Source of the DNA: an uncultured Candidatus Saccharibacteria bacterium
GTDB taxonomy: Bacteria; Patescibacteriota; Minisyncoccia; Phycocordibacterales; UBA2100
DNA length: 64,000 nt
Direction of reading: 5' to 3'
Assembly (NCBI GenBank): GCA_964437185.1
Contig: CAYTFU010000002.1
Span: 41,296-105,295, forward strand
Under the pieces are notes generated by a model. The model made no database searches. It worked only from the letters and a program-made list of their open reading frames with translations, and was not told the origin of the DNA. Of this stretch, positions 7,165 to 53,132 are shown one piece after another. Within the stretch, counting starts at the first letter, position 1, and each line of letters opens with the position of its first letter. A program made the translations under genes and the position numbers.

Positions 7165-7821
7165 ATGCGATACCACAGCTATATTTTTTTCGATGTATGC
7201 CAGAGCTTCCCTGTACCGTCGGCTGCAAAAATCAATACGTACAAAAAGGGTTTTGCTGCGATAGTGGAAAACAATGTCGATGTTGGTGTGCGAGCCTACG
7301 GGACACTAGCACTTAAATCCGGTACGCGATTTATGTTACACATGAATGCAGGTTCTCCCGATGCGATACAGCTTCTTACGCGAAACTTATTGCACTCCGA
7401 GCTCGGGAGGCTTCTCACGATACGCTACACGCTCATGGGCATAACCCGATCATCGCAGTACAATCCAAAATCGGCCCCAAAAGAAAGCGTGCCAGATATG
7501 CCTCATCGCTATCTTGTGGTGTATCCATTCACGAAAACTATCGAATGGTATTTAATGCCGTACGATGAGCGACGGGGTATCATGAAGTCCCACGTTGATG
7601 TCGGCCGCAAATTTAGCAAGAACATATCGCAGCTTCTCTTGTACTCATACGGCATAGACGATCATGAATTCATCGTGTCATACCAAATGAGTGATCTGGA
7701 AGAATTCCAAACCCTCGTGATGGAAATGCGTGAGACCGAAAGCCGTCGTCACACGAAAAATGACCTGCCAATATTCACCTGTATACACATGTCACTTCCC
7801 GAGGCACTCGACATGGTATGA
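7165..7821 (+). CDS. chdC: chlorite dismutase-family coproheme decarboxylase (HemQ/ChdC)
   Basis: YLVVYPFTKTIEWYLMPYDERRGIMKSH...GIDDHEFIVSY pattern typical of HemQ; sits inside the heme cluster. Confidence 0.8.
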   Translation: MRYHSYIFFDVCQSFPVPSAAKINTYKKGFAAIVENNVDVGVRAYGTLALKSGTRFMLHMNAGSPDAIQLLTRNLLHSELGRLLTIRYTLMGITRSSQYNPKSAPKESVPDMPHRYLVVYPFTKTIEWYLMPYDERRGIMKSHVDVGRKFSKNISQLLLYSYGIDDHEFIVSYQMSDLEEFQTLVMEMRETESRRHTKNDLPIFTCIHMSLPEALDMV

Positions 7822-24259: not shown

Positions 24260-24667
24260 ATGGTAGCCAATTTTACACTCACAGAAACTCAACGATCGGC
24301 TATTGAAAAGCTTGGCGTTGTCCTTTTGTATCTACATGGCTCGGTGGCTGCTGGCACCGCGCGCGCAAACAGTGATGTAGACATTGCTGTTTTATTTGAA
24401 ACTACGCCGCGGGACTCGATTAGCGCGACGACCGCGGTCACGGAGGCTCTACGCGGATTGGTACCGCAACGTGAGATGGATATCGCCATACTCAATGAAG
24501 CAAATCCGCTGCTGAAACAAATAGTCGCCTCGACCGGCAATCTCCTGTACGCGCGTACAACTGACGACGCATTGAAATTTGAGCTGCGCGCCATGCACGA
24601 TTACGAATATTCTCGCCATGTCGTCCGTCTGGGGCAGGAACTTATTTTGCGCAACGTGAGCGTATGA
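24260..24667 (+). CDS. minimal nucleotidyltransferase (MNT-type antitoxin)
   Basis: LYLHGSVAAGTARANSDVDIAVLF (GSx10-ish DxD pol-beta NTase motif). ATGA overlap with the downstream HEPN gene. Confidence 0.8.
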   Translation: MVANFTLTETQRSAIEKLGVVLLYLHGSVAAGTARANSDVDIAVLFETTPRDSISATTAVTEALRGLVPQREMDIAILNEANPLLKQIVASTGNLLYARTTDDALKFELRAMHDYEYSRHVVRLGQELILRNVSV

Positions 24668-38928: not shown

Positions 38929-40272
38929 ATGAGTATCGTTAAGGTGCGTTTCCCACCGAGCCCGACGGGCTATTGCCATGTCGGCACCGCTCGAATGGCG
39001 ATTCTTAATTATTTATTTGCGCGAAAACACGGCGGGAGCATTGTATTTCGCAGCGAGGACACCGACAAGGAGCGCAGCCGCGCGGAGTACGAAGACGACA
39101 TTCGAGAAAGTCTTAGCTGGCTCGGACTTTCGTGGGACGAGTTTTATCGCCAGTCTGAGCGCACCCACGTATACACTACCGCGCTTCTACAACTCATCCG
39201 CGAGGGGAAAGCATACGTCTCCGAGGAGGAGAGTAAAAAAGAACCTGGCGTACGCGTGCGTCCGGTACGACTCAAAAACCCGGGCACCGTTATCACGTTT
39301 GCAGATGAGATCCGCGGTGAGATTACGTTTGATACGGCAGAACTCAAAGATTTTGTCATTGCGCGCTCGATCAACGATCCGCTGTATCACCTTGCAGTGG
39401 TCGTCGACGATCACGATATGGGGATCACGCACGTGATTCGCGGCGAAGATCACATCTCAAACACACCTCGGCAAATTCTGATTCAGGAGGCGCTTGGATA
39501 TTCGCGGCCCGTGTACGCGCACTACCCGCTGCACCTTTCAGCAGACAGAGCGAAGCTCTCTAAACGCACGGGCGATGTGGCCGTCCGATCGTATCGAGAA
39601 AAAGGATACCTGTCCGGAGCACTACTCAATTACCTCGCGACACTTGGCTGGACGCCACCATCGGGTAGGGAGATATTGAGTCTTGATGATATGGTCAGCG
39701 AATTTGAACTCAAAGACGTGCACAAAAGCGGGGCAATTTTCGATCTCGAAAAGTTGCGCTGGTACAACAGACACTACTTGCACGAACTTTCACCCGGAGA
39801 ATTTGCCGCAGAAGCGTCGATTATCCTCTCCGAAGAAATGCACACTCGCGGTATTACGGTCACAGACGACCTTGTACTAAAATTATGGCCGATTATACGC
39901 GAGCGAATAGGCGTGTGGGAGGATTTGCGTGAGGCGATTCGCGATGCCGAGTTTGATTTCTTTTTCAAAGACCCGGTATTGGATTCCGCCCGTATATCGC
40001 AAAAAGGAGTCGAGCCAAACGTGACGCTGAAGCACCTCGCCGCTTGTGCGGAGATGCTGACCTCTGTCACCGAGGAGGATTTTACCGAGTCACACATCAA
40101 GGATCGGCTGTGGCCCTACGCAACATCAGAGGGTCGCGGGGCTGTTTTATGGCCGCTACGATACGCGCTCTCGGGCCTCGAAAAATCACCGGACCCCTTT
40201 GTAATCCTCGGGATCATAGGGAAAGAGACGGCACTGAGGCGTATTGAGGCAGCTCGATCGCAGCTTGTATGA
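38929..40272 (+). CDS. gltX: glutamyl-tRNA synthetase
   Basis: RFPPSPTGYCHVGTAR (HIGH), THVIRGEDHISNTPRQ and KLSKR motifs. Confidence 0.93.
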   Translation: MSIVKVRFPPSPTGYCHVGTARMAILNYLFARKHGGSIVFRSEDTDKERSRAEYEDDIRESLSWLGLSWDEFYRQSERTHVYTTALLQLIREGKAYVSEEESKKEPGVRVRPVRLKNPGTVITFADEIRGEITFDTAELKDFVIARSINDPLYHLAVVVDDHDMGITHVIRGEDHISNTPRQILIQEALGYSRPVYAHYPLHLSADRAKLSKRTGDVAVRSYREKGYLSGALLNYLATLGWTPPSGREILSLDDMVSEFELKDVHKSGAIFDLEKLRWYNRHYLHELSPGEFAAEASIILSEEMHTRGITVTDDLVLKLWPIIRERIGVWEDLREAIRDAEFDFFFKDPVLDSARISQKGVEPNVTLKHLAACAEMLTSVTEEDFTESHIKDRLWPYATSEGRGAVLWPLRYALSGLEKSPDPFVILGIIGKETALRRIEAARSQLV

Positions 40273-48614: not shown

Positions 48615-51600
48615 TTATTCCTTCACAACGAAATTGACCAAGCGGCCTGGCACGAGGATAGTACGTACAATTTCTCTTCCAGCAACGCGCTCGCTCACTG
48701 CCTTCCTCGCTTCCCCTTCTATTGCTGTCTTATCCGCATCAGACGCAACATCGATCTGCGCGCGTGTTTTGCCGTTGACTTGCACTGCAATTGTCATCGT
48801 CTCAGATTTAAGATATTCCGCTTTGTAAACGGGCCACGTTTGTAAGTGGACGGACGACTTGTGGCGCTCCGACCAGAGTTCTTCCGCCATGTGAGGGGCA
48901 AACGGCGCCAGGATTTTCAAGAACGTGTCCCACTGTACTGCGCCAATTTTACCCTCTGACTCAATGGCATTGAGTAGTATCATGAGCTGACTAATGGCGG
49001 TGTTAAATTTTAGCGCCGCGATGTCCTCCCCTACTTTCTTTATCGCTTTGTGCAGAACATTCTGGAGCGCATCAACCTCCCCTTTCGCAACCATAAACTG
49101 GATTTTCCACGCACGCTCCAAAAATCGCCTCACCCCCACCACCCCATCGGGATTCCATGGATAGCTCGACACTTCGTTGTATGGCCCGATAAACGCGAGA
49201 TACATGCGCACCGTATCCGATCCGAGCTGCGCGACTACGGCATCTGGATCGATCACATTCCCGCGTGATTTACTCATCTTTTGACCGTCGGGGCCCATGA
49301 TGAGGGATCGGTTCATGCGACGCGTATACGGCTCTTTGTCTTTCACCAAGCCGAGATCGTACATGGCCTTCTGCCAAAAACGGCTATACAGCACGTGCAT
49401 AGTCGTATGTTCAGCGCCTCCCGAATACAAATCTATCGGCATCCACTTCGCAAGTTTTTTCGGATCTGCAAATTTCGATCTGTTTTTTGGATCACAGTAG
49501 CGCAAAAAATACCACGAAGAGTCTATGAATGTATCGAACGTATCAGTCTCTCGCTCCGCCGGCTTTTTACATTGCGGGCACTTTACCTTCACCCACTTCG
49601 TAGCCTTCGCAAGCGGCGACTTGCCACTCCCCTCCGGTAGATAGTCTTTGACCTCCGGCAACTTCACAGGCAAATCTTTATTCGGCACCGCGACAGGCCC
49701 GCACACGGCGCAGTGAATAATCGGTATGGGCACTCCCCAATATCTCTGACGCGACACGATCCAGTCACGAAGTTTGTAAGTCGTCTTTACTCGTCCATAC
49801 TTTGCCGTAATTCTTCCGATTGCTTCGCGATTCATGAGGCCAGTAAACTCTCCGGAGTCAACAAGTATTCCCTCCTCTGTATATGGCTGGTATCCGGTCA
49901 CGCGCTTCCAAGCAATCATCACATCGGGACGATTGATAAACCGAGAAAATTCTTCGGGCCCGTACCAACCCACATCATGACGTGACTTTTCGTGCTCGGA
50001 AACAATATCTTGCTCGCCGTTTTCTAGACTGTACAAAAGCGGCGTAAAATCTACGAGACGATTTACCTTTTTCTCTACGCTGTAATATTTTCCCCATATA
50101 TGACCGCCGAGAGATCGCACAAGCTTTGCGCTCCGATATCCAGTCTCCTCGCGAATTTCGCGTATGCCAGCCTCCACGGCATCTTCTCCTTCTTCAATAC
50201 CACCCGAGACGCACTCATTGACCTTCGTCGGTTTGAAGTGCACTCCGAGGTATTTGTCCTCCGACCAGTGCTTTACAATCGCAAACACAGATTTTCGGCG
50301 CTCAAGCGGTTCTCCTTCGCGTACCGCATCAAGCCCGCCCTTGAAAAGCGAGAGTGGTTCAACCACCTCCTTAATTGGTAGTTTAAACTTAGTAGCAAAC
50401 TCATGGTCGCGCTCGTCGTGCGCAGGGACTGCCATAATCGCGCCTGTACCGTAGTGGGCAAGCACATAATCTGCTATCCAAACGGGGATCTTCTCTCCTG
50501 TCGCCGGATTGATGGCTCTCACACCCTTCAACTCCACTCCCGTTTTCTCTTTCTGGTCTGCCATCCTCTCCAGCTCCGTCTTTCGCTTTGATGCCTCAAC
50601 GTATGTTTTTATTTCGTCAGCGTTTGCGCACAGACCACTCCGTATAAAATCCGAGACCCAACGGTGCTCAGGAGCCAATACCAGGTACGTCGCGCCGAAA
50701 AGCGTGTCCGCGCGCGTGGTAAAGACTCGCATAGTAGGCCTGAGCCACATAAGCACGTCTGGCTCAGTGTCACCTGTAAAGTGCGTCGCATTCGATACAC
50801 CTAGCTCAACGCGCGTACCGAGCAAATCCGCAAGGGCTTGCGCCTGTTGATCTGAGATGGCGTGATCGCGTGGATCGTGCAAAACCGTAAATGAACCAAC
50901 GTTTCGCTTAATAGCTTCAGAATCAAATTTCCACGACCACGTTTTTTCAAACAGTCTCTTTTTGTCTTTAAACTTCGTATCCACAAAGCCCCCGATGGTT
51001 ACCAGCCGCGCAACGGGCTTCGTAAGTTGCTCCGCCACTTTGAGCGCGAGCACGGCCCCGAGACTGTGGCCAACGATCACAGTGCGTTCATCGTACGTCG
51101 TCGCGCTTATTGCGTACTCGACCTGCTCGCGCTCCGTGGGATTATCAGTGTTGGGAAGGCGCGGAATAACTACTTCGTGACCCATTTTTTCCAGCTCCGC
51201 CTTCACCCACTTCCACCGCGGCGCATCAGGAGTTCCGCCAAATCCGTGAAAAATCACAAACTTGTACTTCTGACCAAGATCGAGGACAAAATCTATCTCG
51301 GCTCCTTCACTTCGACCAATCCAATTTCTCTGAGATTCTTTGATCTGCTCCGGCCAGTCCAGTCCATCGAGGTCGTCGATCAGTCGGTCTGCATAATCAG
51401 TAATCTTTATATTCCACTGCAACATTTTCCTCTGCACGACTTCGCTGTCGCATCGCTCACATCTTCCAGAAACCACTTGTTCATTTGCGAGTACCGTCTT
51501 GTCCTTCGGGCACCAGTTTACCGCGGTCTCTTTACGATATGCGAGCCCCTTTTTGAAAAATTCGAGAAAAAGCCATTGCGTCCATTTGTAGTACGCCGGA

Positions 51601-51986
51601 TCACACGTAATCACTTCTCTCGACCAATCAAAGGATGTGCCCATGGAGCGGATCTGCTTCTTCATGAACTCGATATTCCTGTACGTCCATGTACGCGGAT
51701 TTATGTTGTTCTTTATGGCAGCGTTTTCGGCGGGCAAACCAAACGCATCGAAGCCGATCGGATAAAGCACATTTTTCCCCTGCATCCGCTCCGCGCGCGC
51801 AAAAATATCTGGTACAGCAAATGCGTACCAGTGACCGACGTGCAGATTTCCCGAGGGGTATGGAAACTCGACGAGTAGGTAGGAATTTTTCTTCCCTTTT
51901 ACTGAATCTCGGGTCCTGTAAAGTTTCGATTTATCCCATCGCGCTTGCCACTTTCGTTCAATTGCCCGATGATCATATTTTTTCAT
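48615..51986 (-). CDS. leuS: leucyl-tRNA synthetase carrying two inserted hydrolase domains (Ser-hydrolase and Nudix)
   Basis: PYPSGNLHVGH, Zn finger CERCD, editing TTRADT and GTGAIMAVPAHDERD, KMSKS and the C-terminal tRNA-binding domain are all present. 1123 aa because of inserts at about aa 236-416 and 545-700. Confidence 0.93.
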   Translation of the reverse strand: MKKYDHRAIERKWQARWDKSKLYRTRDSVKGKKNSYLLVEFPYPSGNLHVGHWYAFAVPDIFARAERMQGKNVLYPIGFDAFGLPAENAAIKNNINPRTWTYRNIEFMKKQIRSMGTSFDWSREVITCDPAYYKWTQWLFLEFFKKGLAYRKETAVNWCPKDKTVLANEQVVSGRCERCDSEVVQRKMLQWNIKITDYADRLIDDLDGLDWPEQIKESQRNWIGRSEGAEIDFVLDLGQKYKFVIFHGFGGTPDAPRWKWVKAELEKMGHEVVIPRLPNTDNPTEREQVEYAISATTYDERTVIVGHSLGAVLALKVAEQLTKPVARLVTIGGFVDTKFKDKKRLFEKTWSWKFDSEAIKRNVGSFTVLHDPRDHAISDQQAQALADLLGTRVELGVSNATHFTGDTEPDVLMWLRPTMRVFTTRADTLFGATYLVLAPEHRWVSDFIRSGLCANADEIKTYVEASKRKTELERMADQKEKTGVELKGVRAINPATGEKIPVWIADYVLAHYGTGAIMAVPAHDERDHEFATKFKLPIKEVVEPLSLFKGGLDAVREGEPLERRKSVFAIVKHWSEDKYLGVHFKPTKVNECVSGGIEEGEDAVEAGIREIREETGYRSAKLVRSLGGHIWGKYYSVEKKVNRLVDFTPLLYSLENGEQDIVSEHEKSRHDVGWYGPEEFSRFINRPDVMIAWKRVTGYQPYTEEGILVDSGEFTGLMNREAIGRITAKYGRVKTTYKLRDWIVSRQRYWGVPIPIIHCAVCGPVAVPNKDLPVKLPEVKDYLPEGSGKSPLAKATKWVKVKCPQCKKPAERETDTFDTFIDSSWYFLRYCDPKNRSKFADPKKLAKWMPIDLYSGGAEHTTMHVLYSRFWQKAMYDLGLVKDKEPYTRRMNRSLIMGPDGQKMSKSRGNVIDPDAVVAQLGSDTVRMYLAFIGPYNEVSSYPWNPDGVVGVRRFLERAWKIQFMVAKGEVDALQNVLHKAIKKVGEDIAALKFNTAISQLMILLNAIESEGKIGAVQWDTFLKILAPFAPHMAEELWSERHKSSVHLQTWPVYKAEYLKSETMTIAVQVNGKTRAQIDVASDADKTAIEGEARKAVSERVAGREIVRTILVPGRLVNFVVKE

Positions 51987-52096
51987 ACGATTTCTGCTTG
52001 CCCGTCCGAAGCTTTCCTGACCTTCGTAGCTTTAGCGAAGTAGGTAGCGAAGGAGGGCCACTTTTTCTCAATTTTGGTATGGTCGTACTTCTTCAT
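51983..52096 (-). pseudogene. 37-codon upstream ORF starting with a diverged copy of the LeuRS N-terminus
   Basis: MKKYDHTKIEKKW... versus LeuRS MKKYDHRAIERKW... The DNA differs mainly at synonymous sites, and its TGA overlaps the leuS ATG (ATGA). Confidence 0.5.
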
Positions 52097-52166
52097 TGGA
52101 TGAGCGTATCATATCCCTCCGCAAAGGAAAAACCTCTGCACCAACGGTCCTCTCGCCTCTGCAGCC

Positions 52167-53132
52167 TTACAAATTCTTCATTTTAGAGTACGGAGGGTAC
52201 CGCTCCGGGTCTATGGTACGTTCAAAACATACTCGGCCTGCGGCATGATGCCATACGTCGTTTTCAAGGCTCGCTGCCTTCCCCTCAATCATCGGTGCTG
52301 AGACTGGGCGCGCTCCCATGTAACTATTCAACTGACCCTCGGCATTGAACACTGCGCAGAGCTCGAAGATCATGCTACCTTTTGCCGAGTACTCATAACT
52401 TTCTCCCGTCTGCGGGTCGCGCGGTACAATTGTGCCGCTGATAGGATCGTGCAGGTCGCTAAGTAACGAGGGCATTCTTTCTTTACTCTGCCAGTAATTT
52501 ACGATCATGGATTGTATCGAGACAAGATCATTCAACTTCTGATCATCAAGACGCTGCAAGCGAGCCTGAGCCGGAGATCCTACAATAAAGAAACCAGCGA
52601 TAACAGTGCAGAAAACCAGAAGCAACGTAGCGACACTGACATAGCGATTGCGCTCAGGGTACTCACTCCAGTAGTTCCAAATATCTGCCAAGAAGTGCAT
52701 GAGGCCAACCGCGGCCACGAGCAGCACAACGAGCGCCTTAAGAATAAACCGAGTCGTTATCTCTTCTCCATTCAGAAATGTATAAAGAACAAAAATCAAA
52801 TCACCGACAATCGCGGCGCCGGCTACGAATACGGTCAGGTAGAGCGCCCACCTACGAACCCATATCTCCTTACGTGACTGATCCTTTCTCATATCGCGGC
52901 GTATGAGGTACATCAGCGCCAAAAAGGCTGGAGTGAGGACAATAAGTGCAGCCATCTCCCAGCTTATCCCGCTCTGGTACGGGTCCGAGGGATAGTAATC
53001 CAGAGGATCCGGCATTGCATAATCCACGTAGTTCCACACGAGCGCGATGTAATTAAAAACCGCCACGTAGAGCGCTATAACAGCCCCGGCCCACAGGAAG
53101 AAATCCTTTGGTGTTACTTTTGAGGTATTCAT
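52167..53132 (-). CDS. DUF5671-like polytopic membrane protein
   Basis: N-terminal PKDFFLWAGAVIALYVAVFNYIALVWNYVDY, about 6 TM helices and a C-terminal soluble domain. The pattern is common in CPR genomes. Confidence 0.6.
   Translation of the reverse strand: MNTSKVTPKDFFLWAGAVIALYVAVFNYIALVWNYVDYAMPDPLDYYPSDPYQSGISWEMAALIVLTPAFLALMYLIRRDMRKDQSRKEIWVRRWALYLTVFVAGAAIVGDLIFVLYTFLNGEEITTRFILKALVVLLVAAVGLMHFLADIWNYWSEYPERNRYVSVATLLLVFCTVIAGFFIVGSPAQARLQRLDDQKLNDLVSIQSMIVNYWQSKERMPSLLSDLHDPISGTIVPRDPQTGESYEYSAKGSMIFELCAVFNAEGQLNSYMGARPVSAPMIEGKAASLENDVWHHAAGRVCFERTIDPERYPPYSKMKNL

Follow-up and report, generated by a model that had tools for sequence, protein, structure and literature searches.

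Why should a gene for leucyl-tRNA synthetase (LeuRS) be preceded by a diverged copy of its own first codons? The question is raised by leuS on the minus strand of a 64,000-nucleotide (nt) stretch of an uncultured Candidatus Saccharibacteria bacterium (contig CAYTFU010000002.1, positions 41,296 to 105,295; hereafter the window). An upstream open reading frame (uORF), the ATG of which lies 110 nt 5' of the leuS ATG (51986), begins with 13 codons (U) that resemble the start of LeuRS, continues through a hairpin-forming spacer and ends on the present leuS start (D). Comparison with related loci leads us to regard the uORF as probably, though far from certainly, the stranded original start of leuS, which would still load ribosomes that then re-initiate on leuS.

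The uORF as a probable former start of leuS

The N-termini of the uORF and of LeuRS are identical at 10 of 13 residues (MKKYDHTKIEKKW and MKKYDHRAIERKW, respectively), and five of their shared codons differ synonymously (AAG/AAA twice, TAC/TAT, GAC/GAT and GAG/GAA). The match goes beyond chance, because leuS alone among the 58 predicted genes of the window scored above 6/13 in a scan of upstream 13-mers, and 8/13 was never exceeded when the 300 nt upstream of leuS were shuffled 2000 times. The original prediction had described this reading frame correctly, including its distance of 110 nt, the 10 of 13 shared residues, the third-position differences and the TGA that overlaps the leuS ATG. No earlier start codon was found in the leuS frame upstream of 51986. 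An exact look-up of the uORF peptide in a gene-position index returned no record, and a protein word search with a hypothetical fusion of U, the uORF tail and D, in which a single candidate was compared, gave no match and is uninformative.

Of the two starts, U can be taken as the resident one, because it keeps the leuS promoter (see below) and is closer than D to the LeuRS N-termini of relatives that lack the uORF. It matches the LeuRS start of the sister locus L002 at 32 of 39 nt, including a rare DHTK motif, compared to 24 of 39 nt for D, and the mean number of matches to 18 relatives is 29.6 for U and 23.6 for D. Similarly, the U of another carrier of the uORF, L040, shares DHRK with L033. 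U and D are 69% identical at the DNA level over the 39 nt in the window (62-79% in the other carriers) and resemble different relatives, which rules out a recent tandem duplication by slippage, as had been argued from the window itself. A tandem duplication of the promoter together with the start is likewise ruled out (the 71 nt before D are unlike the 70 nt before U). These sequence comparisons demonstrate that U is homologous to the ancestral start.

The promoter points in the same direction. The string TGATACGCT-CATCCA (52111..52097) directly precedes the uORF ATG and holds an extended -10-like box. In relatives without the uORF, TGnTAnnnT is found 6-8 nt before the leuS ATG itself (e.g., TGATACGTT-GATTCT-ATG in L007; likewise in L024, L016, L013 and L033), and in most carriers it is followed, after 6-8 nt (8 nt in L113 and L134), by the uORF ATG, the box being less clear in L040, L092, L102 and L124. 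In L040, the sequence that precedes the uORF can be aligned, base for base, with that preceding leuS in L030, a relative of L040 without the uORF. Neither TAnnnT nor a Shine-Dalgarno (SD) site was found before D in the window, and no -10-like box or SD site was seen before D in the other loci with the same type of spacer (type 1, see below). The mRNAs of this Kaiserbacteria-like genome appear leaderless, because in most genes a -10 box lies 6-7 nt ahead of the ATG and an SD site is missing: TAnnnT ends 5-9 nt before the ATG of window genes 12 times (peak at 6-7 nt), whereas equivalent bins elsewhere average 3.7, and SD-like motifs precede only 1 of 50 window genes. The promoters look to be of the extended -10 kind only. 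The uORF start would thus be the ancestral leuS start, because its box and spacing precede leuS itself in the uORF-less relatives and the genome is leaderless-like.

Conservation of the layout

A LeuRS scan of species-representative genomes yielded 80 loci, nearly all from Parcubacteria and many labelled Kaiserbacteria, across which the LeuRS start M..YDHKKIEKKWQ is highly conserved. The carriers of the uORF among them are, besides the window, L040, L050, L054 and L004. A metagenome scan for YDHxxIERKWQ added L092, L096, L097 (= L117), L102, L107 (= L153 and L168), L113, L115, L124 and L134, giving 14 distinct carrier loci. In the comparison of leuS upstream regions that the original prediction had proposed as a check, 13 other loci show the same layout, LeuRS-like U included. 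The carriers stem from at least four places in the LeuRS tree, and because 14 distinct loci carry the layout, it is a heritable feature of a set of lineages and not an artefact. Conservation of the layout can be regarded as demonstrated on comparative grounds.

The uORF ATG is retained, and no stop codon precedes the hairpin, in all 14 loci. The stop forms an ATGA overlap with leuS in seven loci (the window and six others), lies 11 nt inside leuS in L107 and 4-31 nt upstream of the leuS ATG in five loci with the second type of spacer (type 2). The stop-terminated uORFs comprise 16-38 codons, and every such stop lies beyond the hairpin. In the remaining locus, on a metagenomic contig (L102, 1027-1313), a 1-nt difference in an A-run puts U in frame with leuS, and the predicted LeuRS has a 26-residue N-terminal extension that holds both starts and the hairpin-encoded peptide. 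The peptide tails of type-1 and type-2 uORFs are unrelated, the layout being conserved more than the peptide. In the type-1 loci with a single element (L040, L113, L134 and L107) the spacer measures 41 nt and is 80-95% identical between loci, whereas the next 900 nt of leuS are 64-72% identical. Relative to this form the spacer is expanded by 30 nt in the window (71 nt) and by 33 nt in L050 (74 nt), with the reading frame kept in both.

The window LeuRS contains two inserted domains according to Pfam (alpha/beta-hydrolase-like and NUDIX), and the uORF had been suspected to be a scar of the arrival of this unusual insert-bearing gene. That connection is not supported. Insert-bearing LeuRS proteins of about 1120 aa are common in relatives without the uORF, and the LeuRS lengths of carriers vary (985, 991, 1028 and 1137 aa). 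A length of about 1120-1137 aa is frequent among related Kaiserbacteria loci; in other relatives the protein measures 943-1028 aa, and one or both inserts are missing.

A hairpin repeat between the two starts

The 24 codons that follow U had been described as unrelated to LeuRS and able to form alternative pairings. They turn out to be copies of a dispersed palindromic hairpin element, and the identity of the spacer as a repeat element is demonstrated by sequence comparison. The type-1 unit is about 33 nt long and GC-rich, with the consensus CCCTCC-TTCGCYAARGCTWC-GGAGGG-CAAGC. Copies at leuS occupy four sites, namely the uORF and, in frame inside LeuRS, a loop near residue 30 (L050, L054, L046 and L155), the position after APEHP (L016, L023, L026 and L056) and the position after EELW (L013 and L042). 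Further copies are found inside YchF (L038 and L050) and at the end of another ORF (L127). The element is read in all three frames (SFAKAT.., SLKLR.. and LLRQGFGGQA) and lies in sense orientation in 10 of the 11 copies checked, which represent about nine separate sites. An extra type-1 copy (stem CACTGC/GCAGTG) was observed just upstream of the leuS-leader promoter in L107 (1140-1180), in the same orientation, giving two copies within 100 nt.

Among 18 copies compared, the 14-nt loop hardly varies and the 6-bp stem shows compensatory changes (TCC/GGA, GCC/GGC, TGC/GCA and CACTGC/GCAGTG): 88.9% of cells are paired, and four of the six stem pairs have changed on both sides. The covariation score of 0.212 is reached in none of 500 shuffles (0.066), and slid controls gave at most 0.097.

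The type-2 element (CCCC(A)GTACCAC, a variable apical stem and GGCTACGGGGCAGG) occupies the leader in seven loci, and copies are also found inside leuS (L013) and before ychF (L004 and L054). The 3' half of the leader (GCTACGG..GGGCArG, A-rich linker and ATG) is alignable between the two types, which suggests that type-1 and type-2 leaders are homologous.

No transposase, terminal repeat or target duplication was identified for the element (no whole-genome search was made), and no target-site duplication was seen at the in-frame copies. No copies beyond those in the leader were found in the 64-kb window. A candidate CPR (candidate phyla radiation) repeat string, CTTCGCTAAAGCTWCGG, had no exact match in the first 81 loci, and looser patterns were needed. 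No description of such elements in CPR was found in the literature searched.

A proposed coupled leader and the alternatives

In the leader, the leuS promoter and U have stayed in place, followed by the hairpin element and by the diverged D, which heads the gene with neither a promoter nor an SD site of its own. If the uORF is a stranded start, transcription would begin at or beside its AUG, and the 5'-terminal AUG of U would bind ribosomes. These would translate the 37 codons, unwinding the hairpin on the way, terminate at the UGA of AUGA and re-initiate on the leuS AUG by termination-reinitiation coupling. The transcription start, the translation of the uORF and the coupling are what we infer from the arrangement of these features. 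A translated leader coupled to leuS was one of the two readings offered by the original prediction, and it has gained comparative support from the 14 loci, the ATGA or nearby stops, the L102 fusion and the -10 spacing. All three genuine 4-nt gene overlaps in the window are GTATGA, the same hexamer as at the uORF/leuS junction, and GTATGA may be a preferred coupling junction.

Several observations weigh against this explanation. Within the type-1 group, much of the ATGA conservation can be put down to common descent. Tight coupling does not extend to all loci, because five type-2 loci stop 4-31 nt early and L092 has a good -10 box of its own (TGTGTAAAAT plus 6 nt) directly before D, and because of this acquired box the dependence on U would not be absolute everywhere. 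The A-rich, unstructured region around D could permit direct, SD-independent initiation, and the spacer may be conserved to the benefit of the element and not of leuS expression. A strict sigma-70 scan for two hexamers gave no minus-strand promoter, the window leader folds with an unexceptional energy (z = -0.9), and the leaderless start of the uORF is something we infer from motif spacing alone.

These points lead to the strongest competitor, an inert scar: a past recombination or duplication event would have stranded the old start together with a selfish hairpin in front of leuS, the uORF would serve no function, and ribosomes would enter leuS independently of it, at the leuS AUG within an A-rich stretch free of structure. 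The presence of the spacer family in other genes means that its conservation need not concern leuS, and the variable stop positions of type 2, the new promoter before D in L092 and the internal cistrons of this genome, which likewise lack SD sites, would all fit. In a leaderless-type organism, however, a 5'-terminal AUG would be used if transcription starts at the conserved promoter. Moreover, in all 14 loci the uORF ATG persists and no stop has arisen ahead of the hairpin, the frame has been preserved through two independent expansions, L102 joins U to LeuRS in frame, and the type-1 loci have no promoter-like box before D. We consider an inert scar unlikely.

A dedicated regulatory leader seems more improbable still. 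The hairpin would be an operator that tunes leuS, either bound by LeuRS as a tRNA mimic or sensing the speed of ribosomes on the uORF. Autoregulation of ThrRS is a case in which an aminoacyl-tRNA synthetase (aaRS) binds a tRNA-mimic operator, and the leuS hairpin, located 14 nt before the start codon, is conserved above the level of coding sequence and has a covarying stem (see above). Its family, though, has further members at three other LeuRS positions, within YchF, in ychF leaders and at the end of another ORF, and because of this spread it is not specific to leuS, as a ThrRS-type operator should be. An attenuation leader for Leu, judged unlikely from the start, is ruled out, because none of the 37 uORF codons encodes Leu and there is no terminator/antiterminator pair with a U-run; no terminator-like site was found in the leader, the hairpin being followed by the A-rich AGAAAUCGU and not by a U-rich tail. 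Rfam gave no match up to E = 10 in 51800..52400 and, apart from tRNAs elsewhere, none at the gathering score in the window or in the 13 carrier loci; neither a T-box nor any other leader was matched, so that a T-box riboswitch has no covariance-model match in its favour. ARAGORN found no tRNA in the window.

Translational bypass as in T4 gene 60 (UGG to UGG) and an intervening sequence acting at the RNA level were set aside, because the ATGA junctions and the L102 fusion offer a simpler account; the type-2 loci also lack the matched codons. Finally, an assembly artefact or a collapse of two strain haplotypes, to which one might turn because U and D differ mostly at synonymous sites as two strains would, has next to no probability, because a separate Logan assembly (L001, run ERR3094293) is identical to the window leader at all 259 aligned positions and the architecture recurs with lineage-specific sequence in 13 other Kaiserbacteria-like loci from different samples and species.

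Origin of the second start

If U is the resident start, D has to be accounted for. Its IERKW type was found in all five carriers and in none of about 65 tabulated non-carriers among the 80 genome loci; metagenomes contain many IERKW LeuRS without a uORF, which weakens IERKW as a unique marker of a cassette. In the star-like tree of the LeuRS core the carriers are scattered: the window pairs with the uORF-less L002, L040 with the uORF-less L030 and L033, and L050 with L054. Codons 1-21 of D in L040 resemble those of the window (QARWxKSK), and codons 24-60 of L040 are identical to those of L033. In nt 1-63, the window and L040 side with the other carriers against their sisters by 13:6 and 13:4, respectively, whereas over nt 64-600 the sisters are favoured (carriers to sisters 47:65 for the window and 44:61 for L040). 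The sign tests for a mosaic D gave p = 0.03-0.17, with small numbers. The window D is thus closer to the D of other carriers than to the start of its sister, and this is suggestive of a mosaic origin. The other reading offered by the original prediction was a scar of recombination with a diverged leuS allele; what stands of this is that two diverged starts are present, U being the resident ancestral one, and the resemblance of D to the D of other carriers is suggestive of recombination.

There are hints in these patterns of a cassette of hairpin and new start that moved by recombination. As a tentative extension, which we hold to be possible but doubtful, a family of hairpins of about 33 nt in Kaiserbacteria-like CPR may colonise essential genes in sense orientation. 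A copy inserted into the opening codons of a leaderless gene would bring a replacement start (hairpin, A-rich linker and foreign codons 1 to about 20). Such a "start-swap cassette" would spread between lineages by recombination, leave the resident start as a coupled uORF and make a leaderless gene dependent on re-initiation. An old duplication followed by repeated losses is a candidate for an alternative origin.

The same pattern is found at a second gene. In L054 (1171-1330) the ychF leader consists of a promoter-proximal copy of the first 14 codons (MALSIGIVGLPNVG) and a type-2 hairpin, with the real start 114 nt downstream. The two copies differ at 11 codons synonymously and at one non-synonymously, and because the protein motif at the ychF start is invariant, they fit either a resident or a foreign origin. 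In two other loci, L004 (1391-1437) and L092, the 5' leader of ychF contains a hairpin, but the start is not duplicated. Because the order of U, hairpin and D recurs at ychF in L054, the process is not unique to leuS, and the architecture suggests a general process rather than a one-off event.

Coordinates of the leader features, of the gene overlaps and of the element copies are given in Table 1. On the plus strand, a frame of 165 codons stays open (51689-52186) opposite the 5' end of leuS, the uORF and the intergenic stretch; it probably arises from the composition of the other strand.

Table 1. Features of the leuS leader in the window, window gene overlaps, and in-frame copies of the hairpin element in other loci (positions without a locus prefix refer to the window)
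Feature	Position	Strand	Description	Basis
uORF	52096..51983	minus	37 codons + TGA; peptide MKKYDHTKIEKKWPSFATYFAKATKVRKASDGQAEIV	read directly; homologous uORFs in 13 other loci
Extended -10-like box	52103..52111	minus	TGaTACGCT, then 6 nt CATCCA (52102..52097), then uORF ATG	read directly
U, putative former leuS start	52058..52096	minus	first 13 codons of uORF; MKKYDHTKIEKKW	
Spacer with palindromic mini-element copies	51987..52057	minus	71 nt; uORF reads PSFATYFAKATKVRKASDGQAEIV	fold and family comparison
Spacer, outer stem	52057..52052 with 52007..52001	minus	CCCTCC with GGACGGG	fold
Spacer, loop of inner copy	52039..52026	minus	TTCGCTAAAGCTAC	fold
Spacer, tail	52000..51996 and 51995..51987	minus	CAAGC and A-rich AGAAATCGT	read directly
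Stop/start overlap	51986..51983	minus	ATGA in context GTATGA; uORF TGA 51985..51983	
D, present leuS start	51924..51986	minus	codons 1-21, MKKYDHRAIERKWQARWDKSK; IERKW type, common to all uORF-bearing loci	
leuS, gene served by the leader	48615..51986	minus	1123 aa; tRNA-synt_1, Anticodon_1, Abhydrolase and NUDIX inserts	Pfam
GTATGA gene overlaps	7818-7821, 24664-24667, 40269-40272	plus	Val-stop/Met	
In-frame copies in LeuRS	L013:7179-7230, L042:4640-4680, L016:5325-5365, L023:4733-4770, L026:5320-5385, L056:5353-5390, L050:4085-4165, L054:4090-4130	sense		pattern scan
In-frame copies in YchF	L038:2745-2790, L050:2070-2115	sense		pattern scan

Comparison with known systems and implications

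The leuS leader is best filed as a putative leaderless coupled uORF, a known kind, and is unusual in two respects: its uORF is the displaced start of the gene itself, and a family of hairpin repeats lies between the two starts. In mycobacteria, leaderless small ORFs are coupled by RTGA to the next gene, the arrangement being conserved but not the peptide sequence (Shell et al. 2015, PMC4633059). The leuS uORF shares with them the short ORF at an AUG close to the putative promoter and without an SD site, the conservation of layout over peptide and the RTGA overlap (ATGA in the window and in six other loci). In contrast to them, it is derived from the gene's own former start (13 LeuRS codons), holds a repeat hairpin, occurs in a CPR host and is known here from sequence alone.

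Translational coupling at overlapping stop and start codons is classical in operons, e.g., at the trpB-trpA ATGA. The leuS junction has the same ATGA overlap without an independent ribosome-binding site, with GTATGA present at three real gene boundaries of the window, but the upstream cistron here is a 37-codon relic and not a gene. Leaders of aaRS genes that act by attenuation or as T-boxes are likewise short and translated or structured, whereas the leuS leader is devoid of Leu codons, contains no terminator/antiterminator pair and does not match the T-box.

Rickettsia palindromic elements (RPE, 100-150 nt), repetitive extragenic palindromic (REP) sequences and miniature inverted-repeat transposable elements (MITE) are small palindromic repeats. 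The element described here resembles them as a dispersed hairpin repeat that is tolerated in frame in essential protein genes and read in three frames, with multiple dispersed copies and a hairpin kept by compensatory change. It differs in its length of about 33 nt, in having a conserved loop and a variable stem, and in the sense orientation of 10 of 11 copies. Homology-facilitated illegitimate recombination during natural transformation would produce a resident 5' end, foreign upstream DNA, a foreign 5' coding segment and the resident remainder, an order similar to the mosaic suggested for L040 and the window. At leuS, unlike in that process, the junction coincides exactly with the 5' edge of the hairpin in every case and recurs at the same codon, which points to element-specific joining or to the spread of a single original junction.

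To our knowledge, most CPR lineages have no cultured representatives, and we know of almost nothing that has been established about their translation initiation. The leuS leader offers a compact, testable case of an essential gene that seemingly depends on a leaderless upstream ORF and on stop/start re-initiation, and the 14 natural variants (overlap, short gap and in-frame fusion) form a ready-made mutational series. It also illustrates how the 5' end of an essential gene can make room for a selfish hairpin repeat. Annotation is affected as well: gene callers miss the uORF and could misplace the leuS start or call fused forms. The start-swap cassette, if true, would be a new way in which small repeats and recombination rewire gene expression.

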